Assembly (NCBI GenBank): GCA_041746255.1
Contig: JBGTHM010000127.1
Coordinates: forward strand, 1 to 36,612
DNA: 36,612 nt
Source: Fibrobacteria bacterium
GTDB lineage: Bacteria > Fibrobacterota > Fibrobacteria > UBA11236
Direction: 5' to 3'
The notes below the pieces were generated by a model. The model was not told the origin of the DNA and made no database searches. It saw only the letters and a list, made by a program, of their open reading frames with translations. Positions 4,414 to 36,612 of the stretch are shown piece after piece. A program made the translations under genes and the position numbers. The stretch's first letter is position 1, and each line of letters begins with the position of its first letter.

Positions 4414-4493
4414 AAAGCCCATTCTTTTGTTGCCGAACCCCCGCGCCCCTTAATATCTTCCCTTCGGAATCGTTTCCTTTTCGACTGGATTGA

Positions 4494-4910: not shown

Positions 4911-4970
4911 AGAGGCTTGAGGCCCACCTGGGGACGGATTTGCGCGATGCCGAACCGATAAGCTATGGGT

Positions 4971-5603: not shown

Positions 5604-5622
5604 TTTATGGTGCGATGATCCC

Positions 5623-6009: not shown

Positions 6010-6049
6010 GCCTTCCCACCCCATGCCTGTATAATACTAGGGGCGCTCG

Positions 6050-6649: not shown

Positions 6650-6701
6650 GGCATGGGAAATGCCGTTGTTAAAAGGGGTCTAGGCCCTCCACACTGAAAT
6701 G

Positions 6702-6785
6702 TGCCCAAGACGAGACTTGAACTCGTACGACCTTGCGGCCAAAGGATTTTAAGTCCTCAGCGTCTACCAATTCCGCCACTCGGGC
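6702..6785 (-). tRNA. tRNA-Leu(TAA)
   Basis: GCCCGAG acceptor, TGGCGGAATTGGTAGACGC D arm, anticodon loop CT-TAA-AA, long variable arm, GTTCAAGT T loop; CCA not encoded. Confidence 0.97.
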
Positions 6786-6891
6786 CGCTCTAAGAGCGGA
6801 AAGTCCGCATAAAATTAGTTCAGGGATAAAATTCATGCAATTATTGGCCGACATACCCTTTATTTAGACGCATCGCCATTGGGTAGGCCCC

Positions 6892-8016: not shown

Positions 8017-8145
8017 GGTTTGACGGGGCCCTCATTGCGGCGGCATCGCCGCGGCTTGGTTCACAAACATCCCAAAGATACTTCTTCGGGCAAGATATCG
8101 TTTTTTATATAAATTAAGGGGCCCGAGCCCAGGGTTTACCTTTCC

Positions 8146-9420: not shown

Positions 9421-9427
9421 CCCGGTG

Positions 9428-10237: not shown

Positions 10238-10261
10238 GCTGGGCTCGCGGCCTTCCCTGGC

Positions 10262-10290
10262 TTGCAAAACAAGCTTCTTTTGACTACTTT
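10262..10290 (+). promoter_or_regulatory. Putative sigma70 promoter of rpsF operon
   Basis: TTGCAA-17 nt-TACTTT. Confidence 0.55.
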
Positions 10291-10291
10291 G

Positions 10292-10401
10292 GACCCCTCC
10301 TCGGCGCATTGCCGGGGTGAAAAATCACCGATAACCTGTTCTAGCTGAGCCGGACTAGAACCGAGCCGCCTGCGCGCGGAAGACCAAAGGAAGGTTTAAT
10401 C
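10292..10401 (+). promoter_or_regulatory. Putative S6:S18 autoregulatory leader
   Basis: 5' CCCTCC can pair with the SD GGAAGG; a CCA precedes the SD strand; internal hairpins; lies directly upstream of rpsF. Confidence 0.5.
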
Positions 10402-10767
10402 TTGAATAAATATGAAACCGTCGTAATCGTAGACGCCATGATCCCCGAGGAGGCCGTGGTATCGGAATTCGACGCCATTGCCAAGCAAATCGAGGCCGTC
10501 GGCACCATGCTCAAGGTCGATCGCTGGGGCAAGAAGCGTCTCGCTTATCCCATCAGCAAGAAAAGCCACGGCGAATACACCGTGTTTTATTACGAAGCTC
10601 CCACCAGCTTTCCCGCTGAGATGGAAAAACGCTTCCGCATCAACGAAAACATCCTGAGATGGCTGACCATCGAAGGCATTCCGGGGGGAATCCCCTCCGA
10701 TGAACCCAGAGATAACCGTGAACCGGTTTACGTGGGAGAAAGAGAGGACAATGATGGCCGAGCGTAA
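10402..10767 (+). CDS. rpsF: 30S ribosomal protein S6
   Basis: [29 protein letters not shown] start. Confidence 0.97.
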
Positions 10768-11002
10768 CAACCCCAAAGAAAATAAGAAGCGCAGAAAAGT
10801 CTGCTTTTTCACCGAAAACAAAATTCCCTATATCGACTATAAAGACGAGCGATTATTGCGGAAGTTTGTCAATGAACGTGGAAAAATCGTATCCCGTAAA
10901 ATTTCCGGCACTTCCGCAAAATACCAGCGGCAGCTGGCGACGGCCATCAAGCGTGCAAGGCACCTGGCGCTGTTGCCTTTCGTCGCCGAGAACATGCGCT
11001 AA
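10754..11002 (+). CDS. rpsR: 30S ribosomal protein S18
   Basis: [34 protein letters not shown]; start 10751 or 10754 after GAGGA. Confidence 0.97.
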
Positions 11003-11026
11003 CCGGTCCGAGCGAGGAATAAAGAC

Positions 11027-11482
11027 ATGGAAATCATACTCAAACAAGACATACAAGGCCTGGGCAGAGCCCTCGACCTCGTCAAAGTGAAAAATGGCTT
11101 CGCCTTGAATTATCTCTTTCCCGAAAAACTGGCCGTCATGGCCACCGATCGGGCCAAAAAGAATATTGAAGCGGAACGGGTCAAGGCGGAAGCCCGATCC
11201 GAAGTGGATAAGCAGGCGGCGGTGGCCCGAGCTGAAAAGCTCAAGGATTTCTCCGTTACCTTATCGGCGCGTGTTTCCGAAGGCGATAAACTCTACGGTT
11301 CGATTCAAGCCGCCGACGTTTCCGCCAAGCTTAAAGAAGCCGGCTACGATATCGACAAGCGCAGCGTAATTCTGCCGGATAACATCAAGCAGTTGGGAAT
11401 GTTCACCATCAAGGTGCAATTGCACCGCGATGTTGAGGCCAAGATCAAGCTGTGGGTTATCAACGACGAATCCGCTTCCTGA
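11027..11482 (+). CDS. rplI: 50S ribosomal protein L9
   Basis: MEIILKQDI.GLG, VKNGFALNYLFP, KLYGSI, IKQLG. Confidence 0.97.
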   Translation: MEIILKQDIQGLGRALDLVKVKNGFALNYLFPEKLAVMATDRAKKNIEAERVKAEARSEVDKQAAVARAEKLKDFSVTLSARVSEGDKLYGSIQAADVSAKLKEAGYDIDKRSVILPDNIKQLGMFTIKVQLHRDVEAKIKLWVINDESAS

Positions 11483-11515
11483 TCAAAGTCTCCGACGCTT
11501 CCGAATAAATCTGAA

Positions 11516-11542
11516 AAGCGGCTCCTCAAGGAGCCGCTTCTT
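11516..11542 (+). terminator. Probable intrinsic terminator after rplI
   Basis: AAGCGGCTCC-TCAA-GGAGCCGCTT followed by CTT. Confidence 0.7.
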
Positions 11543-11559
11543 CCAACGGCGGAAATCCC

Positions 11560-12372
11560 ATGGCTAAGAAGCAGCGTATCACCGTAATGGGGGCAGGAGG
11601 CCGCATGGGTCAGATGATCCTGCAGGCTTGCGCCACCCGTATCCAGCGGTCCGAATTTCCCATGACCCTATTCGGAGCCATCGAAGCGCCTGGTTCGCAA
11701 CGCGTCGGCCAATCCGTAGGCATTCCCGGACTGGCCTTGAAAATCTCCGACGATGTGAACTCCCATGTCGACGGAGAAACCGTACTTATTGACTTCACCC
11801 AGCCCACCGCCACTTTGGCGACCCTGGCGGTGGCCGTTAATCGGGGCGCAGGAATGGTTATCGGAACCACGGGTTTTTCCGACGAAGGCAAAGCGGCCAT
11901 CGAAGCCGCTTCAAAAACCATCCCCATCGTTATGGCCCCCAATATGAGTGTCGGGGTAAATTTGCTTTTCCAGGTTACCGAAAGCGTGGCGCGCGCCTTG
12001 GGACCCGATTACGACGTGGAAATTATCGAAGCCCATCACAACCAAAAAAAAGACGCGCCCAGTGGAACTGCCTTGGGATTCGCCGAAGCGGTGGCGCGCG
12101 GCCATGCCATCAATTTGCGCGACAAGGCGGTTTATGGCCGAGAGGGATTGACGGGTGAGAGACCGCGTGGTGAAATCGGTATCCATGCCGTGAGGGCCGG
12201 CGATATCGCGGGTGATCATACCGTGCTTTTCGCGGCCGGGGGGGAGCGCATCGAAATCCGCCATGTGGCCCATAGTCGCCAGCCCTTCGCCGAAGGCGCC
12301 GTCAAAGCCGCGTTATTCCTGCGTGACCAAAGCCCAGGGCTTTATTCCATGCACGACGTGCTGGAACTTTAA
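11560..12372 (+). CDS. dapB: 4-hydroxy-tetrahydrodipicolinate reductase
   Basis: GAGGRMG, IDFT, VIGTTG, APNMSVGVN, EAHHNQKKDAPSGTA. Confidence 0.97.
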   Translation: MAKKQRITVMGAGGRMGQMILQACATRIQRSEFPMTLFGAIEAPGSQRVGQSVGIPGLALKISDDVNSHVDGETVLIDFTQPTATLATLAVAVNRGAGMVIGTTGFSDEGKAAIEAASKTIPIVMAPNMSVGVNLLFQVTESVARALGPDYDVEIIEAHHNQKKDAPSGTALGFAEAVARGHAINLRDKAVYGREGLTGERPRGEIGIHAVRAGDIAGDHTVLFAAGGERIEIRHVAHSRQPFAEGAVKAALFLRDQSPGLYSMHDVLEL

Positions 12373-12508
12373 TTTCCGGGAAGCCATCCTGGTTTTTTAC
12401 GGAAAATCCGCGTTATCCCGGTGGTTGCCTCCAGCGAAGGGTTGTATATTCCAGTGAGTTTTCGCGGTCGTTTCCGCTCTTTTTGGGTCAGCCAACCGAG
12501 GTGGGGAA

Positions 12509-13717
12509 TTGCATAGGATACGGGTTCTTTTGGGGTTTCTGGCAGCGGTTTCCTTCCTACCTAACCGGCCGTATGCCGAAGAGAACCCTTATCTTCCTTC
12601 CGGCGGGGCGACTGTGTCTCCCTCGGCGGAAGTTCCGGAAGATACCACGACTGCGCCCGATACCTCGGTAACCGCCGAGGCCCCGAAACCGCTACCGGAC
12701 ACGACGGCGATTTTACCGGATACGTCGGTTACGAGTGTGGCCAACGAATTGTTGCCCGTGACGGATACCGCTCTCACAGCGGATACGAGTCGCGCCGCCG
12801 CACCCAGTCCACCACCGGCCAAATCGGAGGACGCGGGGGAAAGTGAACGTCGCCAGCGTATCGTGCGGGAGACCACCGTCAACACCATCGATGAATTGAA
12901 GGGCCGCTATCGCTCGCCCAAAAAAGCGCTTTTCATGTCGCTCGTCGTCCCCGGGCTGGGCCAGGCCTATGTCGGCCATTATTACCGGGCGGCCGCCTAT
13001 GTTCTCGCGGACGTGGCCATGATAGCCGGCTGGCGCCATTACGTGGTGGTCAAGCATGACAGGCAGGTGAGACGTTACCGGCAATTCGCGGATGAGAATT
13101 GGAGCCAGAGTAAATATGAGGATTCCGTTTCGCAAGTACTTTCCATCCGCGATAAGGAAGCCCGGATTCTCCTGACGCCCCATCGGGAATTCTATTGCAA
13201 TTATGTCGTCAACCGCACCCCGGGGCAAGGCGAGAGGCTTTTCGAGGCCTGCCGTGATTTGCCGTCTACCAATGATTATTCGCTGTACCGCGAGGTTTAT
13301 GGCGATGCGAATAGAGATGCGGAGGCGCGGGGTGAATTCCGGAGTAACTTTCCGGACGTGCATCAATTCTATGAGTCGATAGGTAAACATCAAGAGTTCA
13401 TTTCCGGATGGGCCGATGCGAACGACGTGATATTCGGAGACAGCAGCATAATCGGCACGAGCGATCATCGTAGCCGCTATATCGGTATGCGCGCCCAAGC
13501 CACGGAGTATTCGCGCATGCAAGTTTATTTCATGGGAGGCATTGTCCTCAATCACATCATTTCGGCCCTCGATGCCGCGCTGGCGGCTCGGTTCCATAAT
13601 CGCGCACTTTACCAGACCGAAGTAAGCTGGTACGATCGTATCCGCCTGGAAAGCGTTTTGGGTCGCGATTCACAGGGACTTCCGGTCCCTACCGTATTGG
13701 CGCATATCCCCTTCTGA
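12509..13717 (+). CDS. Hypothetical exported protein, DUF5683-like
   Basis: Signal peptide, T/P/D-rich linker, SPKKALFMSLVVPGLGQAY motif, C-terminal Phe; TTG start uncertain. Confidence 0.75.
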   Translation: MHRIRVLLGFLAAVSFLPNRPYAEENPYLPSGGATVSPSAEVPEDTTTAPDTSVTAEAPKPLPDTTAILPDTSVTSVANELLPVTDTALTADTSRAAAPSPPPAKSEDAGESERRQRIVRETTVNTIDELKGRYRSPKKALFMSLVVPGLGQAYVGHYYRAAAYVLADVAMIAGWRHYVVVKHDRQVRRYRQFADENWSQSKYEDSVSQVLSIRDKEARILLTPHREFYCNYVVNRTPGQGERLFEACRDLPSTNDYSLYREVYGDANRDAEARGEFRSNFPDVHQFYESIGKHQEFISGWADANDVIFGDSSIIGTSDHRSRYIGMRAQATEYSRMQVYFMGGIVLNHIISALDAALAARFHNRALYQTEVSWYDRIRLESVLGRDSQGLPVPTVLAHIPF

Positions 13718-20920: not shown

Positions 20921-23383
20921 CTAACCAGCGTCAAGTACGGATCGTATCTTTCCGGTCAGGCCCTTGAGGTTGAAGGGCTTTTCCAGAAAAGCCGTACCTT
21001 CGTCCAGCACCCCGTGGTGAACGATGGTATTGTCGGTGTAACCCGAGGTATACAGTACTTTGATATCCGGCCTGGCGACGGAGAGTTCTTGCGCCAATTG
21101 TTTGCCGCTCATGCCCGGCATGACCACGTCGGTTATCAGTAGGTGAATAGCACCCTCATGGCTTTGGGCCGCGCGCAAGGCCTCGGCCCCATTCTTCGCC
21201 GGTATGACCAGGTAACCGGAAATCTTCAACATCTCGCAGATTATTTCCCGGTTGGCTTCTTCGTCTTCCGCCACCAGAATAGTTTCCCCACCCCCGCGTA
21301 GAAGCGCCGTTGTTTTGGTGGCCGGGTTTTCCAAGGGTTTTTCGTCAACGCGGGGCAGGTAAATTTTGAAAGTACTCCCTTTTCCAAGCTCGCTATACAT
21401 CCAGATGGAACCTCCGCTTTGCTTTACGATTCCATAAACGGTGGCCAATCCTAAACCGGTACCCATACCTTCTTTTTTGGTGGTGAAAAAAGGTTCGAAA
21501 ATCCGGGAGCGGGTGGCCTCATCCATGCCCTCTCCGGTGTCGGTGACCGCCAGCATCACATAAGGTCCGGGAAGCGTTCCGACATGCCTTTCGGCATAAG
21601 ACTCATCCAGGAAAACTTCGGCGGTTTCCAGGGTCAGCCGCCCACCCTTGGGCATGGCGTCGCGGGAATTCAGGACGAGATTGACGATGATTTGCTCCAC
21701 TTGCCCGGGGTCCGCCTTGATGGATCCCAAATCGGAAGCGGGGTGAAGCTGCAGTTCGATATGCTCACCGATGAGGCGGTTCAGCATCGATTCCACCTCG
21801 CGCATAACTGTGTTCAGGTTGAGTACCTGCGGCTCCAGAATCTGCTTGCGGCTGAAGGCCAGTAGTTGCCGGGTCAGCGCCGCGGCTCTATCGCTACACT
21901 TGAGGATTTGTTCGACGCTCTTATACAGCGGGTCGTCGTGTTTCAAATGCATTTTCATGATATCGCCATAACCCATGATGGCGCTGAGGAGATTGTTGAA
22001 ATCGTGGGCCACGCCTCCGGCCAGTTGCCCTACGGCTTCCAATTTTTGCGATTGGTAAAGTTGTTTTTGCAATATCCGCCGCTGCGTGACGTCCGTAAAA
22101 AAACCGACGTTGCAAGCGCGCCCTTGAATCATTACGGGGGAGGTGCTGATATCCGCGTAAAACGTCGCCCCGCCTTGGGTCAGGCAGGGTTGCGCTTCGG
22201 CTTGCGTCTTGGCTCCGGTCAAGACGGCTTCGAATTGTGTCCCAACCTCCAGCAAATGTTCGGGGGGGTGAATGTCGGTTACCTTGAGGGTTTTAAACTC
22301 CTGTTCCGTATAACCGAACATGCGGCAAGCGGCTGGGTTGGCGTAACTGAAGCACCAGGTTTCCATATCGGCCACCAGTATGCCCTCGCTGCTGCTCTGG
22401 AATAAAACCCGGTATTTCTCCTCGCTCTCCAGCAATTCCGCTTCCGCACGTTTGCGCTGGGCTTCGCTTTCGGCGATTTCCATGGCCAGCCCAAGGTCAA
22501 GAGCGATCTCTTTAAGCAAGTCCAATTCCTCTGCGTCGAAAACATTTTCCTGAGTGGAGAAAACCCCCATGATACCACGAGGGCCTTTCAGAGGGCCGAT
22601 GGGCAAGAAGGCCGCGGACCGGCACCCCAATGCGTGAGCGCTATTTCCCAGCAATCCCGAGCGGTCGTGAATGGGAAGTACGGCGCAGACACTATGTCTA
22701 CCTTCCCGGAAAAGGTTTTCGACGGGTCCAATGGAGGAAAGATCTCCCGCCAGCGAAATATCGAGCTGGTCTAAATAGGCATCCGTTCCGTCCACCCCGG
22801 CATACGCGATGGGATGCAATTTAGTATGGGACGCATCCGGCACGCCAATCCAGGCCAGGGAGAAGCCACCTTCCTTTACGGCTACCCGGCAGGCCGCCGC
22901 AAGCACGGTGGTGATGTCACGCTCGCGAACGATGGTTTGATTGATATTGCTGAGAACCCGGTATAGGCGGTTGAGCTTGGCGACACGGTCTTCATTTTCT
23001 TCCTGGGCGGTGATGTCGGTAGAAAGAATCAATACCCCTTCGGAGACAGGTTCCATGGACAGGATGAACCGGCCCATCGAGCCGTCCAAATGCGCAAAGT
23101 CGTTCAGCATGCTGATGTGAATGCGTTGGTCCATACATTTTTGCAATTTGGCGAACATGGGTGATTGTTCCAGACCGGGAAAAACTTCTCCCATCCGTTT
23201 ACCCAGCAAGGCTTCCTTGGGCCGACGGGCTTGTTGGCAAACCACCTTGTTGACGTAGAGGTATTTCCAGTCCGGACTGATTACTTGGCAGCCTTCCAGG
23301 AGATTTTCAAACAGGGTTTCATAAAAGCCGGATTTTTTCTCGAGGTTCATGGCCACAACTTCCTTTTCCAAGGCATAAGCCAT
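20921..23383 (-). CDS. Hybrid sensor histidine kinase (PAS-GAF-PAS-HisKA-HATPase-REC)
   Basis: GGVAHDFNN, NSRDAMP, DTGEGM, FEPFFTTK, GTGLGL, receiver LLITDVVMP; start 23383 or 23350. Confidence 0.95.
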   Translation of the reverse strand: MAYALEKEVVAMNLEKKSGFYETLFENLLEGCQVISPDWKYLYVNKVVCQQARRPKEALLGKRMGEVFPGLEQSPMFAKLQKCMDQRIHISMLNDFAHLDGSMGRFILSMEPVSEGVLILSTDITAQEENEDRVAKLNRLYRVLSNINQTIVRERDITTVLAAACRVAVKEGGFSLAWIGVPDASHTKLHPIAYAGVDGTDAYLDQLDISLAGDLSSIGPVENLFREGRHSVCAVLPIHDRSGLLGNSAHALGCRSAAFLPIGPLKGPRGIMGVFSTQENVFDAEELDLLKEIALDLGLAMEIAESEAQRKRAEAELLESEEKYRVLFQSSSEGILVADMETWCFSYANPAACRMFGYTEQEFKTLKVTDIHPPEHLLEVGTQFEAVLTGAKTQAEAQPCLTQGGATFYADISTSPVMIQGRACNVGFFTDVTQRRILQKQLYQSQKLEAVGQLAGGVAHDFNNLLSAIMGYGDIMKMHLKHDDPLYKSVEQILKCSDRAAALTRQLLAFSRKQILEPQVLNLNTVMREVESMLNRLIGEHIELQLHPASDLGSIKADPGQVEQIIVNLVLNSRDAMPKGGRLTLETAEVFLDESYAERHVGTLPGPYVMLAVTDTGEGMDEATRSRIFEPFFTTKKEGMGTGLGLATVYGIVKQSGGSIWMYSELGKGSTFKIYLPRVDEKPLENPATKTTALLRGGGETILVAEDEEANREIICEMLKISGYLVIPAKNGAEALRAAQSHEGAIHLLITDVVMPGMSGKQLAQELSVARPDIKVLYTSGYTDNTIVHHGVLDEGTAFLEKPFNLKGLTGKIRSVLDAG

Positions 23384-23513
23384 CCCCTCCAACTTGGAGA
23401 GAAGAGGGAATGCATATTCGATAATATTCTATTAGACTGTTATTTTGCCAGAATGGCAACCAAGCGTTGTAATAAAGTCTAGATCTTGGGAGAAAATCCC
23501 GTTTTCGGTTTTT

Positions 23514-26379: not shown

Positions 26380-29349
26380 GTGGAGGTTTTCAAGCCGGGA
26401 CAACGTTGGGTCAGTGATTCCGAACCCGAATTGGGGTTGGGGGAAATCTCCGAAGTGGGTTTCCGCGACGTCAAAATCGCCTTCCGGGCGGCCGACACCG
26501 TGCGTACCTATATGCAAAGGGGCGCCCCGCTCAGGCGGGTACGCCTCAAAGCAGGGGAGAGGGCCCGCACCCGCGAAGGGAAAATCTTCGTGGTACGCGG
26601 CGTGCAGGAATCCGACGGGGTGTTAACCTATAGCGGCGAGGGCATGCACTTGCCCGAGCAGGAATTGCTCGACAGTTTAAGTTTTTCCGATCCGGACAAA
26701 CGCCTGTTGGCCGGTCAAGTGGGCAAGCCGCGCGATTACCTCCTGCGTATGCATACGCAAGCTTTTCGCCGGGAAGTCGTCTCTTCGCCGGAGCACGGCC
26801 TGGTAGGCGCGCGCGTGCAATTGCTGCCCCATCAAATCTCCATCGCGGAAAGGGTTTCGCAAAGGCACCATCCGCGCGTCTTGCTTGCCGACGAAGTGGG
26901 GCTGGGCAAGACCATCGAAGCCGGTCTCATCTTCCACCGGCTTTTCGTAACCGGCCAGGTCGACCGCGTTCTCATCGTGACGCCTCCGCATCTCGTGCAT
27001 CAATGGCTGGTGGAAATGTACCGCCGTTTCAACCATATGTTCACCGTGATGGACGAGGACTTAGCCCGCTCCGAAGAAAAAGGCAATAAGCAGGTCAATC
27101 CGTTTCTGGGCCGCCAAACCGTCATTTGTGGTTTGGATTTTCTCTCGACTTCCAAAAAACGCGTGGAGCAAGCGGCTGCGGCCGGCTTCGATTTGCTTAT
27201 CGTGGACGAAGCCCACCATTTGACTTGGTCACCCGAAATGGCTTCTCCGGAATACGCCGCCGTGGAAAAACTGGCCACCGTGAGCTCCGGGGTATTGTTA
27301 ATCACCGCCACGCCCGTGCAATTAGGCGAGGCGGGCCATTTCGGTCGGTTGCGCCTGCTGGACGCCAATCGTTTTCCCTCCCTGGAAAAGTATCGCGAGG
27401 AGGTGGGCGAATACCGTGAGGTGGCCGACGCCGCCCGGGTTTTGACCGAAAAAAAAGAGCCGGATACCGCTGTGGCGGAAGCCTTGCGCAAGCGCTTTAG
27501 CGGCGACGGGGAGTTGTTGCATAAAATCGACGCCTACCTTCAGGGCGCCTCCGGATCCCGCGACGGGTTGCTCTTCGATTTGGTCGACCGGCACGGCACC
27601 GGTAGGCTTATGTTCCGCAACCGCCGTCAGGCCATGAGCGGCTTCCCTCGCCGCATCGTCCGCTCCGCCCCCCTGGAAAACTCTCCCGCACACAAAGAAT
27701 TCACTTCCCTGGTGCTGACGGGACCGGGCGTGCATCCCGACAAACCGGAAGACTTGGCCAATTATCTCAACGGTCCCGCCGCTTATAATGTGGGTCAATT
27801 CAAGATTCCCGCCTCCGAAGCGGAAAAAGCTTTGCTTAAAGCCTGGCGGCGCGATCCGCGCCTCAACTGGCTGGTGGGCTTGCTCAAAGAAGTACCGGAC
27901 GAGAAAATCCTGCTTATCTGTTCGCATAAAAGCGTGGTGTTCGCCTTGCAGGAAATTTTACCGACTTTCACCACGGTGGATTTTACGGCCTTCCACGAAA
28001 ACATGATTTTGACTACGCGTGACCGCAATGCGGCTTACTTCGCGCGTCCCGACGGGGCCCGCTTGTTGCTCTCCTCCGAAATCGGCAGCGAGGGGCGTAA
28101 TTTTCAATTCGCCCACCATTTGGTGCTTTTCGATTTGCCGCTCAATCCCAGCGTATTGGAACAACGTATCGGTCGTCTCGATCGTATCGGGCAACTCAGC
28201 GACATCTACATCCACGTGCCCTATGTGAAGGACACCGCGCATGAGGTGCTGTATCGCTGGTATTCCGAAGGGTTGGACGCATTTGAACATCCATTATTGG
28301 GTTCGGACTATTTCTACGACGCTCAGGCCGAAGATATTCGCCGGGTTTGCATCGAGGCCATGCATGCCGAGGCCGGTATGGGCGAGGGCGCCGAAATTCC
28401 TGGTGGCGCAGAGGAAAACCCCGGCTTCCAAAAAAGTCTGGACGCTCTGGTCGCACGCACGCGGGCGCTGGCGGTGGAGGTCAAAGAGTCTTTGGAAAAA
28501 GGGCGAGACCGTCTGTTGGAAATCAACTCCAGCCGTCCTGAATTGGCACGTGGGCTTATCGAAGCCATCGAGTCGCGCGATGCCAACTCCGGCTTGGAAC
28601 AATTTCTGGAAACCGTTTTCAACCATTACGGTGTCGACATCGATAAAACCAAGGAAAGGCGCGGGCATTTCGTATTCCCCGGTCCGCAAATGTATATCGA
28701 TACTTTCCCCGGTCTTCCCGAAGCGGGCATAGCCTTCACCTATGATCGCGACGAAGCCTTGATACACGAAGATTTGGCCTTTATGAGCGTGGACCATCCG
28801 CTGGTACTGGGCGCAGTCGAGATGATTCTCGGCAATGCCGATGGCACCGTGGCTTTCGTGGAATGGAAAGGAGCACCCAAACAGGGGTTCGCATTGGAAA
28901 CCCAGTTCATTTTGGAATCCACCGCACCGGGTAGGCTGCACATGGCCCGCTTTCTGCCGCCCACACTTATCCGCTTGCTGGTGAATCAAACCGGGGATGA
29001 CGTCTCGGATTGGCTAACCCAACTCGACGAAATTTATCCCGACCAGGGACCCACCGCTCTATTGGAAGAACACCATGACCAATTCGGCAAGCTGATACCC
29101 AAGCTTCTGAATTCCGCCACCGGCCTAGCCGGTATTAAGGAAACCGTTTTAAAGCAGCATGCGTGTAAACTCGCGCAAACCGTTTTAGGCGGGGAGCTGG
29201 ATCGCCTCACGGCCTTGAGAAATATCAACCCCAGCGTGTCCGATGCCGAAATCAAGGCGGCGAAAAGCGAACTGGAAGAAGTTTTGGGTTTTTTAGCCTC
29301 GGCGGAATTGCGCTTGGATGCAGTGCGGCTGGTGATGATGGCTATTTGA
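26380..29349 (+). CDS. rapA: RNA polymerase-associated SNF2 helicase RapA/HepA
   Basis: FKPGQRWVSDSEPELGLG, LLADEVGLGKT, DEAHH, SEIGSEGRNFQFAHH, EQRIGRLDRIGQ; GTG start. Confidence 0.96.
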   Translation: MEVFKPGQRWVSDSEPELGLGEISEVGFRDVKIAFRAADTVRTYMQRGAPLRRVRLKAGERARTREGKIFVVRGVQESDGVLTYSGEGMHLPEQELLDSLSFSDPDKRLLAGQVGKPRDYLLRMHTQAFRREVVSSPEHGLVGARVQLLPHQISIAERVSQRHHPRVLLADEVGLGKTIEAGLIFHRLFVTGQVDRVLIVTPPHLVHQWLVEMYRRFNHMFTVMDEDLARSEEKGNKQVNPFLGRQTVICGLDFLSTSKKRVEQAAAAGFDLLIVDEAHHLTWSPEMASPEYAAVEKLATVSSGVLLITATPVQLGEAGHFGRLRLLDANRFPSLEKYREEVGEYREVADAARVLTEKKEPDTAVAEALRKRFSGDGELLHKIDAYLQGASGSRDGLLFDLVDRHGTGRLMFRNRRQAMSGFPRRIVRSAPLENSPAHKEFTSLVLTGPGVHPDKPEDLANYLNGPAAYNVGQFKIPASEAEKALLKAWRRDPRLNWLVGLLKEVPDEKILLICSHKSVVFALQEILPTFTTVDFTAFHENMILTTRDRNAAYFARPDGARLLLSSEIGSEGRNFQFAHHLVLFDLPLNPSVLEQRIGRLDRIGQLSDIYIHVPYVKDTAHEVLYRWYSEGLDAFEHPLLGSDYFYDAQAEDIRRVCIEAMHAEAGMGEGAEIPGGAEENPGFQKSLDALVARTRALAVEVKESLEKGRDRLLEINSSRPELARGLIEAIESRDANSGLEQFLETVFNHYGVDIDKTKERRGHFVFPGPQMYIDTFPGLPEAGIAFTYDRDEALIHEDLAFMSVDHPLVLGAVEMILGNADGTVAFVEWKGAPKQGFALETQFILESTAPGRLHMARFLPPTLIRLLVNQTGDDVSDWLTQLDEIYPDQGPTALLEEHHDQFGKLIPKLLNSATGLAGIKETVLKQHACKLAQTVLGGELDRLTALRNINPSVSDAEIKAAKSELEEVLGFLASAELRLDAVRLVMMAI

Positions 29350-29574
29350 GCCAAGCCTTTTGGAAAATTCTGTTTTTTTAAAAATACGGTATTTAAGCCG
29401 GTTTTACTGCGCCCATACTCTCCCTAGCCTAGATTATACTCAAACATGTAGTTGCCGGAACACCTTTTCTTCCTCCTGGGGGCAGACTAGGCAGGGAATT
29501 TCAGCATGGCCTTTACCTCTATTTGTACTGGGGGGGTATGCGGGGAGGTTCCCACAATAATTTGGAGAATATTC

Positions 29575-30918
29575 ATGCCCACAAGATGCTTGCCGCGAAC
29601 CTACTTATTCGCTTTACTGGGGACATGCTTCGGAACCGGCGTCTATGCTCAAGGCGGATTTTCCCGCGCCGATTCGGGTTGGGTACCTATTTTCAACGGG
29701 ACAAATTTTGATGGGTTGTATTCCCGGATGTACGAAAAAGAAATTACCGAAACGGTAGACCCGGCTTTCAGCATTAACAACAAAGAGATCCATGTGGCAT
29801 TTAATGCGGGAGGCCATCTCGCTACAAAAAAGGTGTATTCGCATTACCAGGTCCGAGTAGACTATAAATACGGCCAGAAAATCGTAGGCGTCGGGAATGC
29901 CGGATTGCTGTATCATGTGGACGATTCCCATCCCCGGATGGGCGACAAACACCCCCGTTCCGTAGAAGATCAAATGAAAAAACCGGAGGCCGGCTGGTTT
30001 TACTCTATCCAACAAGTGACCGTGGATATTCCCGTTGCGAACAATTGTAAAAACTGTTACGAACCAGGTAGTTCTAAAATGGGTGTTTCACCGAGAGATG
30101 GCCGGTTCTTCACCTCCGGTAACACACCGGACCCCTACAAGGATAATGATTGGAATGTCAAGATAACCACCATAAGGGGAGCCGACAGCGGAAAGCACGT
30201 AGTCAATGGCATCACGAGAATGGAGGTTTATAATTATCGGGTGCCTGCCGGAACCGGCAAATTCACACCCTATGGCGAAGGCCGTTTGGGTGTTCAAGCG
30301 GAGGGATCCGAAGTAATGTACCGCAATTGGGAGATCATGGAAATCCATCCCAAAAGCCCGGTCAGTTATTTCACCCGGTTCTTCCTGGACCAGCCCCGGA
30401 CCGCACAAAGCGTGATACCGGGCGCCACGGTGGACATCAAGTGGCGTTCTATCGGGCCAATGAAGAATGCGAAGATCGAATACCATGCCCAGGGCAATTG
30501 GAATAATATCGCTGCTTCCGCTCCGAATAACGGAAGCTACGCATGGCAGGTTCCGGCGGGTTTGACCGGTGCGGTAAAATTGCGGATTTCCGGAGTCGCT
30601 GGGGAAGAATGGGTTGCCTCGGATGAAAGCGAAGCCTTGCCAACGAGTATCGGGAATTTGAAAATGCCAGCCTCCCATCGGCTTATGGTTAAGGGGAAGG
30701 ACCAGTGGGTTAGCTGGGGAAAACCCTGGAGTTCGGTCAACATCCGCGACGCGAAGGGAACTCTCATCAAAACCTTCGGGCCCGAAAATAATGGTTCCAA
30801 TATCACTTGGGATCTTAGCGACAATACTGGCCAGCAGGTTCGAGGTGGAATCTATTTCATCACATTCTCCCAGGATCGGCAGAAACAGACTTTCAAGGTG
30901 TGGGTAACGCCCTTGTAG
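29575..30918 (+). CDS. Secreted DUF1080 (3-keto-disaccharide hydrolase-like) protein with Ig-like domain and FlgD/T9SS-like C-terminal domain
   Basis: Signal peptide, GWVPIFNGTNFDG, GNAGLLYH, GRLGVQAEGSEVMYRN; NNGSYAWQVP; ITWD.SDNTGQQVRGGIYFI; GGAG RBS. Confidence 0.85.
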   Translation: MPTRCLPRTYLFALLGTCFGTGVYAQGGFSRADSGWVPIFNGTNFDGLYSRMYEKEITETVDPAFSINNKEIHVAFNAGGHLATKKVYSHYQVRVDYKYGQKIVGVGNAGLLYHVDDSHPRMGDKHPRSVEDQMKKPEAGWFYSIQQVTVDIPVANNCKNCYEPGSSKMGVSPRDGRFFTSGNTPDPYKDNDWNVKITTIRGADSGKHVVNGITRMEVYNYRVPAGTGKFTPYGEGRLGVQAEGSEVMYRNWEIMEIHPKSPVSYFTRFFLDQPRTAQSVIPGATVDIKWRSIGPMKNAKIEYHAQGNWNNIAASAPNNGSYAWQVPAGLTGAVKLRISGVAGEEWVASDESEALPTSIGNLKMPASHRLMVKGKDQWVSWGKPWSSVNIRDAKGTLIKTFGPENNGSNITWDLSDNTGQQVRGGIYFITFSQDRQKQTFKVWVTPL

Positions 30919-31254
30919 GTTGGAGCGGTAACAGTCGAAATCAGTAGTTGTATTTTAAATAAAACACTTCCTCTCCTCGTCGCATTCCATTTGTCGGAAA
31001 AGGCAATAGATTTAAAATCAAACTTATTTGGTTTTAATGAGCCCCATATGGAGAGTAATCCGATCAGATAATCGCCCGCGTTCTTTACTATTTCCTGATG
31101 CAAAATTCGGCGCCGGATTTACACAATTTGGTGCTAGGTAAGCAGAAGTCAGTGAAATTGAAAAAGCTCTCGGATAATGGGCAGACTAGAATACGATTAA
31201 AATATTCGATGGAATTACCGACCCTAAATTCGGTCAGTTGAAATAGGAGTTACG

Positions 31255-32370
31255 ATGCAATGCACTAAATTTCTGGCCCTGATACTTATTCTGGGCACCC
31301 TGGTATTCAGCCAACGTACCGAACACCTTCAAAAAACGCGAGGTATCGATCCTGGGCCTGAACCGGAACGGGTTGATGCGGAAGGTTGGATATGGCTGTT
31401 CGATGGAACCCTTGAATCCCTGAAAAAATACTGGTTCAAATCGCCCAGCGCACATGGGGGTGGCAGTATTTGGTGGGTGGATGAGGATCCTGAAACCGTG
31501 GACCGGGGTAAATTGGCAAAAGGGACAAAAGTACTGTGGTCCACCCAACAACCCGTGGGCACAGGTGGAGTGATGATGACTAATAGAAGGTATAAAGACC
31601 TTGAAGTCATGGTTGGGTTTAAGCCTACTTGGAATAATGATGGCGGAATTTTTTTCCGTTCAACAATTAGCGGGCAAGCATGGCAGGTTATGTTGGACTA
31701 TAAAAATGCGAATACTTTAGGCGGCGTTTACGGAGAGAAAATAACGGATGTCTTTAGAGTAGACCGCATGTACACGTTGAGGTCGGAAACAGCAATAAAC
31801 AAAGTCAGAGTTCCTTGGTCTGAAGACTGGAGTGAGGTTTGGGACCCAAACGGTTACAACGAGATTTTTGCTCGAATACTCGGGGAGCCGCCTACTATCC
31901 ATGCATGGTTGAATAAACCTAAATTCGTTGTAAGTGATCTGAAGCTCCCTCAAAAGGCGCCACAATTGGGCGATGACGGACATTTGGGTATTCAGGTGCA
32001 TAATGGCTCAGTTGCATGGAGTAATTCCCCCAATCGGTATACCTACATCAAAGTTCGGGAATTAAACCCGGATGGAACGCTTAAATATCCCCCTAAACCG
32101 ACGTCCGGAATGAAGCCTCATTCCGATAAAAGCGTAACCGGAGCAGGGTTGAAATGGAATATAAAGGGGGGCAACGTTTTGGAAATTATGGGGTCTCTGT
32201 CGGGGCGGTATACCCTTAACCTGAAGGATCTCAAGGGTCGCTCGGTTATCCAGAAATCCGGAGATGGGGGACATGTTCAATTTGAAGTTCCCGGTATCCG
32301 ATCCGGAATTTACATCCTTGAGATAAATGCCGGTGGTAATTTCACAACTTCAAAAATCATTTCCATGTAG
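31255..32370 (+). CDS. Secreted DUF1080 protein with T9SS-like C-terminal domain
   Basis: Signal peptide, GWIWLFDG, NDGGIFFR, GHLGIQVH; tail DLKGR...SGIYILEI...TSKII; AGGAG RBS. Confidence 0.85.
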   Translation: MQCTKFLALILILGTLVFSQRTEHLQKTRGIDPGPEPERVDAEGWIWLFDGTLESLKKYWFKSPSAHGGGSIWWVDEDPETVDRGKLAKGTKVLWSTQQPVGTGGVMMTNRRYKDLEVMVGFKPTWNNDGGIFFRSTISGQAWQVMLDYKNANTLGGVYGEKITDVFRVDRMYTLRSETAINKVRVPWSEDWSEVWDPNGYNEIFARILGEPPTIHAWLNKPKFVVSDLKLPQKAPQLGDDGHLGIQVHNGSVAWSNSPNRYTYIKVRELNPDGTLKYPPKPTSGMKPHSDKSVTGAGLKWNIKGGNVLEIMGSLSGRYTLNLKDLKGRSVIQKSGDGGHVQFEVPGIRSGIYILEINAGGNFTTSKIISM

Positions 32371-32384
32371 TTGAATAATTAAAA

Positions 32385-33947
32385 ATGAATAATTTCCAAA
32401 ATGCACGAAAAACACTGAAAAAATTCCTTTCAATCCCTAAGCTGCCCCTGCTGGTGGCGCCGCTCATGATTTTGTCCGCTCATGCGGAGCAAGGTCTAAC
32501 ACTTAGCAGTAAAAGTTGGTTTCAACTGGGGCAAGTGGTGCAAAGCGGCGACACTCTAATCAGCACCTATAATTACAATCACAACTGGCAACAAAGTGTT
32601 GGGGCCCAGTTCACTGTGCTGGCAAAAATCGGAGAGAATTGGGATGGGGCCATGGGTTTTGGGGGCCTGCAAAACCAGCAACGCACTCAAGGCTCTCCAC
32701 TGGGTTCCCGCAGCATGGAATTGGGATGGCATCAATATGTGACGCAGGCGCGATTGTCTTACCGCAATTCCTCGGAGATTTTGGAATATGGCGCGACCTT
32801 TGGGTTGTTTCCCTATCAATACAATACCGATGTTACAAACTTAGGGGCATATCTTTTACGGGGACCGGTTTATCCGGGCTTTCTATACTCCGAATTTGAG
32901 TCTCCCCAATTAGATCCCACGGTGGCGAATATTTTAGGAATACATTTTCACGGCAAGCTGTGGAATTCTTTTAGCCACGACCTGATTTTGCGAAGCGAAG
33001 TGGAATTAAAACCGATTTTTGATTTTTCCTTGATTTACCTCACCAGTTTCAAATTTGGACCGGCTTTGGAAATCGGTGGTGGTGTGAACCTTTACCGGGT
33101 TTTCGCAATCAAACCCGAACTCACCGACTTGAAGGATGAAGAGACTTACCGCAAAAATATTTTGCCGCAACGTAATGTGGTGACTCCATACGATCGGAAA
33201 TACATTTATGTGCCTACGGATACCATCTGGTACAATACGGATGGAGTGCCCCTGAATCAGGTGGCAGCGGGCGTAGACACTTTTTCCGTGTCCGGGAGCG
33301 AGTTGTTTCGGACGGACATAGAACGTATTGACGTTGTTTCCAAAGCCGATACCACATTCCTTTCCCATCGGGGAATCAAATTGATGGGAAGGTTTACTTT
33401 CGATCCCAAGGCTTTTATGACAATCGGCAATCTCGGTCCGGAAGATTTGAAGCTTTATGGTGAAATCGCCGTTATTGGAACTCAAAACTACAAGGGCATC
33501 TACGATGATATCCGGGAACGGATTCCGGTTATGATGGGTTTTAATATTCCCACGTTTGGGTTGCTGGACAGGTTTTCCTTCGAAGTGGAATATTACGGTG
33601 CGCGATATAAAAACGATGATTTTAAATTGAAACAACTGTTATCTCCCATCCCCATCGGAAATGGAAGCTCTGAATACCAACAGGTAGACAGTCTAGGTTA
33701 CCTAAAGGGCAATCCGGGTGTGCTTTTTGCGGACGTGGACATAGAAAACATGACCAAAGACAATTTGAAATGGTCGCTCTACCTCTCACGAACTTTCATG
33801 AGGCACATGAAACTCAGTGCTCAGATAGCCAATGATCATTTCCGACCGGGTCAATATATTGATACGCATTTTACGCAAAGGTTCGCCACAGCCTTTACCC
33901 GGCCTGAAGATTTTTATGTGATGTTCAGAATCGGATATTTTTTCTGA
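32385..33947 (+). CDS. Hypothetical outer-membrane protein, paralogue 1
   Basis: Signal peptide (AHA), amphipathic beta strands, C-terminal FRIGYFF; shares motif blocks with the next two ORFs. Confidence 0.85.
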   Translation: MNNFQNARKTLKKFLSIPKLPLLVAPLMILSAHAEQGLTLSSKSWFQLGQVVQSGDTLISTYNYNHNWQQSVGAQFTVLAKIGENWDGAMGFGGLQNQQRTQGSPLGSRSMELGWHQYVTQARLSYRNSSEILEYGATFGLFPYQYNTDVTNLGAYLLRGPVYPGFLYSEFESPQLDPTVANILGIHFHGKLWNSFSHDLILRSEVELKPIFDFSLIYLTSFKFGPALEIGGGVNLYRVFAIKPELTDLKDEETYRKNILPQRNVVTPYDRKYIYVPTDTIWYNTDGVPLNQVAAGVDTFSVSGSELFRTDIERIDVVSKADTTFLSHRGIKLMGRFTFDPKAFMTIGNLGPEDLKLYGEIAVIGTQNYKGIYDDIRERIPVMMGFNIPTFGLLDRFSFEVEYYGARYKNDDFKLKQLLSPIPIGNGSSEYQQVDSLGYLKGNPGVLFADVDIENMTKDNLKWSLYLSRTFMRHMKLSAQIANDHFRPGQYIDTHFTQRFATAFTRPEDFYVMFRIGYFF

Positions 33948-34136
33948 ATTACCGTGAGTGGATTAAGCTCGGTCCAATTAAGGATTCTCGGCGCTTTACC
34001 GGCGAATTTAAAGTCAATTCTCTGCTCCGGCCAGCATAAAAGCGGTCAACTTGCCCTAAGAAAGGCATGTCAAGGTCTTATTTAGCCTCCACAGGTAAAG
34101 CTTATGCATCGTTACAGATTAATAAAGGACGCACGA

Positions 34137-35576
34137 ATGAATTTTAAAGCATGGGCGGTACCTCTTGTCGCACACCTAATGCTGAATACCGCCGTTGCCC
34201 AGTTTGACAACAGTTTTGATATCCAATTTCATGGAGCGGGGTGGTACCAATTCGGCAGCATCATGCATGTTTCGGATACCATTACCGGATCGAATAATTA
34301 CCAGGGCAATTGGACCCAGAATTATGGAGCGGTCTTTAATGGTTTGATTGATTTCAACGAAGAATTCACGGGTTCATTTGGTATCGGAGCCATTAAGGGA
34401 CACACGGCCCAAGGCGCGATCAGTAACTGGAGCGCTCTTCAATACTTTCAGACCACTTTCGTAAACATGGCTGAGCTCACCTTTACTCCGGGTGGGGATA
34501 GAGCCACTTCGCCGTTCAGCCTGACAACTGGCCTTTTCTCATATAATTACGACAGCAATATCCGCAATCTGGGTCTGTATCTCATTCGAGGCAGCGTTTA
34601 TCCTCAAATAATTCTTTCGGAGTTTGAATCCAAAGAAATGCTCCCAATCGGGAATTTACTGGGAGCCAGGATTCACAGTAATTTCGGAAAAAACTATAGT
34701 CAAGATGTCCTCCTGGTCAGTGAATCCGATATGATGCCCAAGTTTGACTATTCCCTGATTTATGTGGGCAATCTTAAATTTGGAAATACCGTAGAGTTAG
34801 GCGCGGGTTTCAATCTTTACCACCTGATACCTGTTCGACCTTCGCTTTCCTCGCCGAAAGAAGGAGGAGAAATCGGAGGGGATTGGGTGGAGCCCGGAGG
34901 TTCCCAACCCGTCAGAGAAATGGATCGCACCTTTGCGCTCGACCTGGACACGACTATTATACCCTTGGCCCAGAGAACCAGCCCTGAAGACAGTTTGCTT
35001 ATCAACCGGGAGTGGTATTCTACTCGGGGTGTAAAACTGATGGGCAGGTTCGCCTTTGATCCTAAGGGGTTTTTCGGGACCGGTTCCTTCGGACCCAACG
35101 ACTTGAAGCTTTACGGCGAAATCGCAGTCCTGGGTGTAAAGAATTACAAGAAAATATACAACAACATCTGGGAACGCATTCCCTTAATGCTTGGATTCAA
35201 CTTTCCCACCTTTAAACTACTGGATGATTTTGCGATCGAGGTGGAGTATTTCCCCAATACACATATGCCGGATTATGGGAAGCTTCAGAGCCAATCCAGT
35301 CCGATTCCTAGAAGTCCTTATTGGAACAGGTCGGTGGTGAACGATGAAAATGGTAATGAGATCCAACCGACTCCTTATGATGCGAAGGCGGACGATTGGA
35401 AATGGTCGATTTATCTCTCCCGAGTCCTAGCCGGACATGTGAAAATAAGCGGGCAGATCGCAAGCGACCACTTGAGGATCGGATCCAGTTCACCTTATCC
35501 TTTCTATACCTTCGAGGAAACTTTCACTTCTCCCAAAGACTGGTATTGGATGTTGAAATCGACGTTCTTTTTCTAG
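34137..35576 (+). CDS. Hypothetical outer-membrane protein, paralogue 2
   Basis: Signal peptide (AVA), C-terminal LKSTFFF; AAGGA RBS before ATG 34137. Confidence 0.85.
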   Translation: MNFKAWAVPLVAHLMLNTAVAQFDNSFDIQFHGAGWYQFGSIMHVSDTITGSNNYQGNWTQNYGAVFNGLIDFNEEFTGSFGIGAIKGHTAQGAISNWSALQYFQTTFVNMAELTFTPGGDRATSPFSLTTGLFSYNYDSNIRNLGLYLIRGSVYPQIILSEFESKEMLPIGNLLGARIHSNFGKNYSQDVLLVSESDMMPKFDYSLIYVGNLKFGNTVELGAGFNLYHLIPVRPSLSSPKEGGEIGGDWVEPGGSQPVREMDRTFALDLDTTIIPLAQRTSPEDSLLINREWYSTRGVKLMGRFAFDPKGFFGTGSFGPNDLKLYGEIAVLGVKNYKKIYNNIWERIPLMLGFNFPTFKLLDDFAIEVEYFPNTHMPDYGKLQSQSSPIPRSPYWNRSVVNDENGNEIQPTPYDAKADDWKWSIYLSRVLAGHVKISGQIASDHLRIGSSSPYPFYTFEETFTSPKDWYWMLKSTFFF

Positions 35577-35617
35577 ACCGGATGAAATTAATGCAGTTTA
35601 AAAGGAATTTTTCCAAA

Positions 35618-36612
35618 ATGAGAATCAAATTAAATTCCCGGACAACCCCGCATCATACCGTTATCACGGTTATGCTATTTTGCATGCTGGTAGGCCAATT
35701 GTCCGTCTATGCATCCGACCTTAAAATCAAAATCAATGGATCCGGATGGGTGCAAGCCGGGCGAGTACAGCAAACCACCGATACCATGAATGTTAACTTC
35801 AATGGAAATTGGATTCAGACAGCCACCGGCCAGATTACGGCCCATGCAGAGTTTAGCGAAAACTGGGACGGTGCCTTGGGTATAGGGCTTGGTCAGCAAC
35901 ATAATATGCAGGGCCGAAGTTTGGATGCGTCGAAATTGTCAATGAGTATTGCAGCCTATCTCACTGAAGCTCGGTATACTTATTCTTTGGGTGAAAGGGA
36001 AAATCCCTTGTTGGGAGTGACAGTGGGGTTATTTCCCTATAATTACAATCCCAATATTAAAAACCTGGGGTTATATCTGCTGAGAGGCCCGGTTTATCCT
36101 GGTGTGTTGATTTCCGGTTTTGAAACCAAGGAGACTTTATCCATTGGTAATATTCTGGGGTTTAAACTCAGCAACACCTTTGGAAACTTTAGCCACGATT
36201 TGCTTCTGAATTCGGAAACCGAATTGCCTCCGTATCACGATTTTTCCCTTGCCTACATTGCCAAGTACAATTTCGGAGAGGTATTGCGAATCGGCGGTGG
36301 CGTGAATTTTTACCATTTGCTGCCTGTGGCCGATGAGTTGACGAATCCTCGGAGTGCTTCGCTTTTCACTTTCAAAAATCAACGTGAAATTAATTCTAAC
36401 TATGATCGCGACTACATCTATGTCAAAACCGACACCTTATGGCTGGATGAAAATGACAATATCATTCCCGGCCAACCACCTAAATTGGTGGGAACCGATA
36501 CCATGAAGGTCGGTAATAAGCTGGTGATAATCACTCCAGATACCACCTTTTACACCCATCAGGGAACCAAATTGACGGGGTTCTTTTCCATTGATCCTAA
36601 GCCCCTGTTCGG
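35618..36612 (+). CDS. Hypothetical outer-membrane protein, paralogue 3 (3'-truncated by window; absent from ORF track)
   Basis: Manual translation MRIKLNS...VYA-SDLKIKINGSGWVQAG...GLFPYNYNPNIKNLGLYLLRGPVYPG...GTKLTGFFSIDPK, in frame to the window edge; AAAGGA RBS; alternative start 35591. Confidence 0.88.
   Translation, partial: MRIKLNSRTTPHHTVITVMLFCMLVGQLSVYASDLKIKINGSGWVQAGRVQQTTDTMNVNFNGNWIQTATGQITAHAEFSENWDGALGIGLGQQHNMQGRSLDASKLSMSIAAYLTEARYTYSLGERENPLLGVTVGLFPYNYNPNIKNLGLYLLRGPVYPGVLISGFETKETLSIGNILGFKLSNTFGNFSHDLLLNSETELPPYHDFSLAYIAKYNFGEVLRIGGGVNFYHLLPVADELTNPRSASLFTFKNQREINSNYDRDYIYVKTDTLWLDENDNIIPGQPPKLVGTDTMKVGNKLVIITPDTTFYTHQGTKLTGFFSIDPKPLF

Follow-up and report, generated by a model that had tools for sequence, protein, structure and literature searches.

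The closest described counterparts of the locus analyzed here are 16-stranded trimeric porins, SusC/SusD pairs, type IX secretion system (T9SS) cargo proteins with their cognate barrels, and a few DUF1080 enzymes. The locus comes from a Fibrobacteria bacterium (GenBank assembly GCA_041746255.1) and lies at one end of a 36,612 nt stretch of DNA, referred to as the window, which is the complete contig JBGTHM010000127.1 (C127) of a 4.59-Mb, 130-contig source genome rated 100% complete. It consists of a gene for a DUF1080 protein with a T9SS tail followed by three genes for non-redundant barrels of predicted porin fold. These four genes form a co-evolving cassette that recurs in environmental members of the phylum Fibrobacterota, and the same barrel family is also coupled to ThuA-like proteins.

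Trimeric porins such as OprB, VhChiP and OmpF/OmpC resemble the cassette barrels in fold, in a conserved non-strand loop that connects strands 5 and 6, and in a C-terminal Phe, but they measure ~300–420 aa as opposed to 450–540 aa, and no sequence relation joins the two at E ≤ 0.1 (Pfam/NCBIfam) or E ≤ 1 (PDB). Unlike described porins, the cassette barrels, which are known here from sequence and models, are three fixed and anciently diverged paralogs encoded behind a T9SS-cargo gene. SusC/SusD systems likewise have a barrel gene beside that of a surface-exposed partner and many paralogous copies, some of them by catabolic genes. However, SusC is an energized transporter with a lipoprotein partner, whereas the cassette barrels have a predicted passive porin fold, match neither PF00593 nor a plug domain, are partnered by T9SS-tailed DUF1080 or ThuA proteins, and are flanked mostly by genes other than glycoside hydrolases. 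SusD has 0 matches in the complete source genome, and the five TonB-dependent barrels of this genome are all encoded elsewhere. Some T9SS cargo proteins are served by a cognate barrel, as in SprB/SprF or with PorV, and the cassette is alike in that the gene for a tailed protein sits beside barrel genes in a genome with SprA. The T9SS barrels are FadL-like, whereas the cassette barrels appear porin-like and match no T9SS barrel model; in addition, SprF-type partners serve type B tails, whereas the cassette tails are type A.

For DUF1080 proteins, the accessible part of one preprint describes BT2 and AL2, of the BT2156–2160 type of operon, as 3-keto-alpha-glucoside 1,2-lyase / 3-keto-2-hydroxy-glucal hydratase enzymes that work with a Gfo/Idh/MocA 3-dehydrogenase, and proposes a BT2 site made up of Glu103, Asn134, Glu164, Gln166, Tyr190, Lys245, Gln273 and His275 (10.1101/2024.03.25.586180). 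The accessible part of a second report contains genetic evidence for DUF1080 in lactose use, with CCNA_01705 as a putative 3'-ketolactose hydrolase, and cites a DUF1080 endo-xanthanase/lichenase (PMC9007349), a precedent that makes direct action on polysaccharide also conceivable. As far as these parts of the two reports go, BT2/AL2 and CCNA_01705 have the PF06439 domain and jelly-roll fold in common with the cassette DUF1080 protein, but they are periplasmic and encoded with a Gfo/Idh/MocA or LacABC dehydrogenase, whereas the cassette protein is T9SS-tailed with no dehydrogenase adjacent. Literature searches on DUF1080 returned no paper concerning Fibrobacterota, and those on the outer membrane, porins or type IX secretion of Fibrobacterota returned nothing relevant among the matches listed; those on ThuA and 3-ketotrehalose yielded nothing of use.

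Downstream of rapA (26380–29349, + strand; NF003426, 961.7 bits), the window carries five genes, all on the + strand. DUF1080 protein #1 (29575–30918; PF06439) has 447 aa counted from the ATG at 29575; its open reading frame (ORF) opens at 29506, and this ATG is in frame at residue 24, ahead of a signal-peptide-like segment. DUF1080 protein #2 (31255–32370; 371 aa; PF06439 and TIGR04183) is the leading gene of the cassette. It is followed by barrel 1 of the position-1 ortholog group (32385–33947; 520 aa, ending in GYFF), barrel 2 of the position-2 ortholog group (34104–35576; 490 aa, ending in TFFF) and the 5' part of barrel 3 of the position-3 group (35582–36612; candidate starts 35582, 35591 and 35618), which breaks off where the contig stops at 36612. 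DUF1080 #2 and barrel 1 are separated by 14 nt (32371–32384), barrels 1 and 2 by 156 nt, and barrels 2 and 3 by 5–41 nt; the cassette measures ~5.5 kb. Barrels 2 and 3 are 37% and 42% identical to barrel 1, respectively, and the three are thus paralogs. All five N-termini have a hydrophobic stretch ending in AQ, SQ, HA, AQ or YA, and export is called from these N-termini, inspected by eye, together with the C-terminal Phe of barrels 1 and 2. In a scan of positions 29300–36612, promoter-like sites numbered 13 (11.7 expected from shuffled sequence) and terminator-like sites 10 (9.2 expected), which is uninformative. An earlier reading of this DNA from its letters alone (the sequence-only reading) had described an AT-richer segment after rapA with five co-oriented exported-protein genes and a 14 nt gap between the second DUF1080 gene and the first barrel gene. 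These features are borne out: the GC content is 0.465 in 29506–36612 versus 0.536 in 1–29349 (genome 0.531), and the five genes with signal-peptide-like N-termini are two DUF1080 genes and three paralogous barrel genes. The same reading spoke of a barrel array; the three paralogous barrels are real, but they constitute a fixed set of three ancient orthologous groups and not an open-ended series.

Evidence for a fixed unit comes from its recurrence. A family-profile scan of one genome per species yielded 51 external loci holding 60 barrel arrays, in records titled Fibrobacterota, Fibrobacteres or Fibrobacteria, apart from two each under the titles 'uncultured Bifidobacterium sp.' and 'bacterium'. 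Arrays were counted from all ORFs of at least 100 aa with three purpose-built profiles (barrel, cassette DUF1080 and ThuA); since related genomes are not independent of each other, the counts describe recurrence rather than statistics. A co-oriented cassette-type DUF1080 gene directly precedes 40 of the 44 arrays whose upstream side is visible for at least 1300 nt. Of the remaining four, one is a split array (L031), one a ThuA-type array (L044) and one a distant single barrel (L060); in the last, L051, a DUF1080 ORF is present but was removed by the overlap filter. DUF1080 plus exactly three barrels is found in 25 of 29 arrays visible at both ends, the other four being the two pieces of L031, L057 with two barrels, and L060. 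DUF1080-led arrays never exceed three barrels, and the sole longer row (L058) is made of four short pieces of 226–462 aa. Junctions between the first and second and between the second and third barrel genes are often −4, −1 or <25 nt; ORF starts follow an earliest-start rule, from which junction values of −37 stem. By these recurrence counts, the adjacency of DUF1080 and barrel genes is far beyond chance, and DUF1080 plus three barrels is one conserved cassette. The source genome itself has about 15 barrel-family genes and three DUF1080-barrel cassettes, on C127, C95, and C46 with C125; the third barrel of the C46 cassette is probably the barrel at the end of C125. The missing 3' end of barrel 3 of the window is probably at the start of contig C55, where a 167 aa fragment (C55 3–506) finds its best matches among position-3 barrels, with that of L018 at 49%; an AAA ATPase gene on the other strand and then unrelated genes come next on C55. 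Contig breaks thus fall inside cassette barrels both at the window end/C55 start and at the C125 end/C46 start, and it seems to be these paralogs that interrupt the assembly. Four external loci (L022, L034, L050 and L057) have a tandem pair of cassette-type DUF1080 genes before the barrels, unlike the window, whose DUF1080 #1 is unrelated. Two of these, L022 and L057, are the 'uncultured Bifidobacterium sp.' records; they carry typical Fibrobacterota DUF1080-barrel cassettes, and their bins are probably mislabeled or mixed.

Phylogenies point to the same unit. In a tree of 81 barrels (quick IQ-TREE search, LG+G4, with Shimodaira-Hasegawa-like approximate likelihood ratio test (SH-aLRT) support only), the position-1 barrels, 25 of 25, make up a single clade (SH-aLRT 97), as do the position-2 barrels, also 25 of 25 (support 73), and the 24 position-3 barrels form two groups of 19 and 5. 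In 0 of 500 shuffles were the position labels as clustered. As far as these clades show, each barrel position represents an ancient orthologous group. Barrel 3 of the window is sister to the position-3 barrel of L018. Cassettes divide into type I (the window, C95, C46, L013, L018 and L053) and type II (19 cassettes), and a tree of 32 DUF1080 proteins exhibits the same split, with support of 90 for type I and 98 for type II. Inner groups are also common to the DUF1080 and barrel trees, such as one that joins the window to L018/L012 and one made up of C95, C46 and L013. The DUF1080 tree thus mirrors the barrel trees, and the four genes therefore diversify as a unit.

The barrels belong to no described sequence family: the three window barrels and 12 further family members match no Pfam/NCBIfam family at E ≤ 0.1, with only sub-threshold hits to DUF6944/DUF7323, and a 50-sequence barrel-family profile has no match at E ≤ 1 among PDB sequences. 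AlphaFold2 (AF2) models barrel 1 as an all-beta barrel (pLDDT 78.7, pTM 0.78). When this model was ranked by VIA-align against 48,161 chains, twelve 16-stranded porins came top with Z of 18–19.7 over model residues ~30–520, including the sugar channels Pseudomonas putida OprB (4gf4; Z 19.7, root-mean-square deviation (rmsd) 3.1 over 264 aligned residues) and Vibrio chitoporin VhChiP (5mdo; Z 19.1, rmsd 4.0 over 285), as well as OmpM1 (Z 19.6) and Omp32 (Z 18.9). The leading porins lie within about 1.5 Z of each other, with general (OmpF/OmpC-like, Omp32, OmpU) and specific ones tied, and lower scores are given by Wzi (15.7), AlgE (14.9), maltoporin (14.3), PelB (14.1) and a FadL homolog (10.5). 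Foldseek matches to porins have E of 6e-11 to 1e-8 with TMq of only 0.36–0.43. Neighbors in the ESM Atlas are first Fibrobacterota 'hypothetical protein' clusters (22 of 30) and then porin sets at 0.92, with an 'alginate export' set also at 0.92. The best-conserved stretch of the family, residues ~140–172, contains G140, F142, G154, Y156, L157, R159, G160, V162, Y163 and P164, which are invariant in 50 sequences; in the barrel 1 model it is a confidently modeled non-strand loop that links strands 5 and 6, the place of constriction loop L3 in classical porins. The modeling thus indicates a 16-stranded, trimeric-porin-like fold for the barrels.

The partner protein has the features of an exported DUF1080 protein. 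DUF1080 #2 comprises a signal-peptide-like N-terminus, a jelly-roll DUF1080 domain (44–257), a linker and a T9SS type A sorting domain (308–369), and groups with the type I cassette DUF1080 proteins in their tree. It scores 42.1 bits with PF06439 (cut-off 26.8) and 28 and 31.1 bits with TIGR04183 in two scans (cut-off 23). Its AF2 model (pLDDT 86.6) shows the jelly-roll and a C-terminal beta-sandwich; the best Foldseek matches are 4jqt (E 2.3e-9), AL2 (8v31; 2.4e-7), BT2157 (3osd; 1.7e-6) and BT2 (8tda; 6.2e-6), and 8rr2 ('eliminase/hydratase') is also among the best PDB matches, with target-normalized TM scores of ~0.5 because the model has two domains. In a profile alignment to 8tda, whose chain numbering is offset by 9 in this comparison, Gln273-x-His275 of BT2 align with Q247-x-H249 (Q247 invariant, H249 at least 90%), Asn134 aligns with a conserved D129, and the Glu103 loop is shortened. 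Catalysis by the cassette DUF1080 proteins is therefore possible, judging from these residues. Type II cassette DUF1080 proteins are often weaker against Pfam; that of L091 matches no family at E ≤ 0.01, yet scores 93 bits with the subfamily profile. DUF1080 #1 scores about 57.3 bits with PF06439 and consists of a signal-peptide-like N-terminus, the PF06439 domain, an Ig-like middle and a C-terminal tail with 20.2 and 22.5 bits for TIGR04183, just below 23. It lies outside the cassette DUF1080 clades on a very long branch (2.87), and its only paralog in the source genome, on C61, is 30% identical over 238 aa; on this sequence evidence, it is an extra gene in front of the cassette, unrelated to the cassette DUF1080 subfamily. 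The source genome encodes the T9SS translocon SprA (TIGR04189), which scores 491.8 bits, or 603.5 with neighboring pieces (cut-off 200); the PorV model reaches only 96.3 bits versus a cut-off of 250. With 70 matches to TIGR04183 in the source genome, this tail marks a general export route.

Other members of the barrel family have other partners. In the source genome, distant barrel paralogs lie directly beside a ThuA gene (PF06283) on C129 (two barrels; 10544–13505 and 9280–10557, − strand), C24 (3270–5994, + strand) and C8 (9254–11805, + strand); two of the three ThuA partners have a T9SS tail (27.8 and 32.8 bits versus 23). ThuA has a role in 3-ketotrehalose formation. Relatives of the C24 barrel occur in 29 external loci from other genomes of the order, viewed with 1.5-kb flanks only, and a Pfam-verified ThuA neighbor is present in 20 of these (downstream and co-oriented in 14, upstream in four and divergent in two) and DUF1080 in one. 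The ThuA profile used to find them included the T9SS tail and cross-matched DUF1080; a Pfam re-check of its 22 matches returned 20 ThuA, one DUF1080 and one without a family. A one-contig genome, G274, has eight barrel loci, of which four are preceded by DUF1080 (one found only by the subfamily profile), three are followed by ThuA, and one is found with a glycoside hydrolase family 27 (GH27) gene. In the last of these (L092; G274:C1:1147500–1153000, + strand), the order is GH27 alpha-galactosidase, barrel, GalT and GalK (514–2025, 2207–3658, 3678–4697 and 4526–5500). Among 151 sampled genomes at E ≤ 1e-60, the GH27-linked barrel has matches in three, and the two outside G274 are only 36–38% identical, with no close ortholog found.

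A profile search of 1.84 billion proteins finds 943 cluster representatives of the barrel family at E ≤ 0.001 (806 at E ≤ 1e-10); the best 150 of the 943 were listed, and all of these are strong. It is present in 87 of 296 Fibrobacterota genomes, a set that includes one unpublished genome (G254): 31 of 31 further genomes in the family of the window, 5 of 6 in its sister family, and 31 of 46, 8 of 8, 4 of 4 and 4 of 7 in families of other classes. None of 151 genomes of the largest family of the phylum (one genus of 101), which we infer to be Fibrobacteraceae, contains it. The sequence-only reading had linked the locus to Fibrobacter-type degraders; that link fails, and the cassette is a trait of non-Fibrobacter Fibrobacterota. 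Its independence from SusC/D holds, as the SusD and PF00593/plug searches show. The proposal that surface enzymes and barrels form a module fares well for the DUF1080-barrel unit, with 40 of 44 arrays and congruent trees, and poorly for carbohydrate-active enzymes, which are not enriched at the cassettes. Similarly, a carbohydrate neighborhood is seen in DUF1080, ThuA, the single GH27-galT-galK operon and a pyrroloquinoline quinone (PQQ)-type glucose/sorbosone dehydrogenase-like protein (GSDH) near five loci (C46, L010, L011, L012 and L058), and is not seen in glycoside hydrolases, Gfo/Idh/MocA or GMC enzymes, of which there are none among 85 direct cassette flank proteins. The suggested oxidative 3-keto route finds no dehydrogenase partner at the cassettes, and the T9SS tails of the DUF1080 proteins mean that a periplasmic 3-keto route of the Bacteroides kind is not the obvious model.

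Taken together, these data slightly favor an interpretation of the cassette as a unit for sugar uptake that is built on porins, probably as a heteromer, and has a partner at the surface. The three barrels would together form a heteromeric diffusion channel, probably a heterotrimer; the T9SS would place the DUF1080 protein on the cell surface, where it would bind or convert a glycoside or oligosaccharide, and the product would enter via the barrel channel. Sister cassettes combine members of this barrel family with a ThuA-like partner that bears a T9SS tail or, once, place a member in an alpha-galactosidase/Leloir operon. Since partners differ across barrel subfamilies, the family may consist of substrate-specific sugar channels that each have a surface or catabolic partner of their own, and thus be a porin-based counterpart of SusC/SusD pairs. 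A stricter version is rather doubtful: an obligate heterotrimeric porin of three ancient paralogs, served or capped by a T9SS-delivered DUF1080 or ThuA protein that processes oxidized (3-keto) or other glycosides on the outside of the cell, with several substrate-specific cassettes per genome.

Several observations weigh against the uptake interpretation. The heteromer is deduced from gene order alone, and ThuA cassettes with one or two barrels indicate that three different subunits are not obligatory. General and specific porins match the fold equally well, and the fold is silent on substrate. Only two of the eight BT2 active-site residues are aligned as conserved, plus one N-to-D change, with the other five in an unaligned stretch of the profile. 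The four PF06439 matches beside barrels are also the four lowest-scoring of 10 in the source genome, and the cassette DUF1080 proteins may therefore bind rather than catalyze. The T9SS tail, with its 70 matches, is too widespread to be specific, and only 7 of 32 cassette DUF1080 proteins match TIGR04183 at E ≤ 0.001. The GH27 operon is a single case, and the direct cassette flanks, with their lack of glycoside hydrolases and oxidoreductases, are mostly housekeeping genes. None of the eight Gfo/Idh/MocA (PF01408) genes of the source genome is near a cassette, all being on other contigs or 30 kb away, and with no adjacent dehydrogenase there is no evident source of 3-keto-glycoside for a surface DUF1080 protein. 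A complex prediction of DUF1080 #2 (21–371) with barrel 1 (35–520), run with alignments and without controls, gave 0.00 versus a mark of 0.32 and speaks neither for nor against binding.

It is conceivable, though improbable, that the barrels are general diffusion porins, i.e. major outer membrane proteins, and that DUF1080 and ThuA are merely co-expressed surface proteins with no substrate hand-over. The tied fold matches, the location of cassettes among housekeeping genes and the many copies per genome (~15 genes in the source genome, eight loci in G274) would all fit such porins. However, the retention of the partner in 40 of 44 arrays and the co-diversification of partner and barrels are hard to explain without functional coupling, and barrel subfamilies keep differing partners (DUF1080, ThuA, GH27/galTK). 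The T9SS tails raise a different possibility, to which we give a similarly small chance, that the barrels serve to dock or anchor the T9SS cargo encoded beside them and are not nutrient channels. Both partner types have type A tails, the genes are adjacent and co-oriented, and SprA is present; yet the genome encodes ~70 tailed proteins, of which only the DUF1080 and ThuA subfamilies have these barrels. Moreover, the barrels match no NCBIfam model of a T9SS barrel (PorV, PorP/SprF or PorQ) at E ≤ 0.1, FadL-type barrels score far below porins (Z 10.5 versus 19.7), and the barrel of the GH27-galT-galK operon has no neighbor matching the DUF1080 or ThuA profiles built here, which include the tails, although the T9SS model itself was not run at that locus. 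Export or anchoring of a surface polysaccharide through AlgE- or Wzi-like barrels, with DUF1080 trimming or binding the polymer outside, is very improbable. Wzi (Z 15.7), AlgE (14.9) and PelB (14.1) do appear in the fold ranking, the 'alginate export' set stands at 0.92 in the ESM Atlas, and a glycosyltransferase family 4 (GT4) gene lies elsewhere in the window at 6892–8016. Twelve 16-stranded porins nevertheless score higher than these fold matches, genes for a periplasmic scaffold, Wza/Wzc or a polysaccharide synthase are absent from the 85 flank proteins, and the GH27-galT-galK context points to uptake.

Outer membrane nutrient uptake in Fibrobacterota beyond the genus Fibrobacter is essentially undescribed, and the barrel family, with its 943 representatives, lacks a Pfam/NCBIfam model and is nearly always found with a DUF1080 or ThuA partner. 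Should the three barrels prove to form a genetically fixed heterotrimer, their architecture would be unusual for a porin. Likewise, if sugars are the substrates of DUF1080 and ThuA proteins at the surface, the poorly understood chemistry of both families would move to the cell surface and both would gain a transport context. The cassette is small and self-contained, and is fit for heterologous tests.

Further neighbors occur at some cassettes. A ~800 aa protein with a PD40/TolB-like propeller and tetratricopeptide repeats (TPR) is encoded just upstream in four type I loci (C95, C46, L013 and L053), a PQQ-type GSDH gene lies just upstream at the five loci named above, and L053 also has a gene for a xylose-isomerase-like TIM barrel; neither the PD40/TPR protein nor the PQQ-type GSDH is encoded just upstream of the cassette in the window. 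Coordinates of upstream type I neighbors are 5670–8144 (− strand) in L001, and 4922–7444 and 7795–9453 (both + strand) in L003 (C46). The window also encodes an 823 aa PAS/GAF hybrid histidine kinase-response regulator (20921–23392, − strand) ~6 kb upstream of the cassette. L024 and L036, both type II cassettes, have close relatives of this kinase (348 and 322 bits) encoded directly upstream of DUF1080, which makes the kinase a possible regulator.

The GC content differs among barrel loci of the source genome: 0.44–0.47 in the window, 0.46–0.49 in C46/C125, 0.45 in the C8 pair, 0.52–0.55 in C95, and 0.50–0.53 in C129/C24. As cassettes of one genome vary between 0.45 and 0.55, the low GC downstream of rapA is not inherent to the gene family and may reflect horizontal transfer or differing age. 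Finally, the distant single barrel of L060 (28% identity) is found among FG-GAP propellers and an alpha/beta-hydrolase esterase (556–1923, 2281–3858, 3900–4682 and 5373–8217, + strand). One of these propellers has a borderline match to an aldos-2-ulose dehydratase propeller (27.9 bits versus 27), and the FG-GAP context may represent a further partner type.

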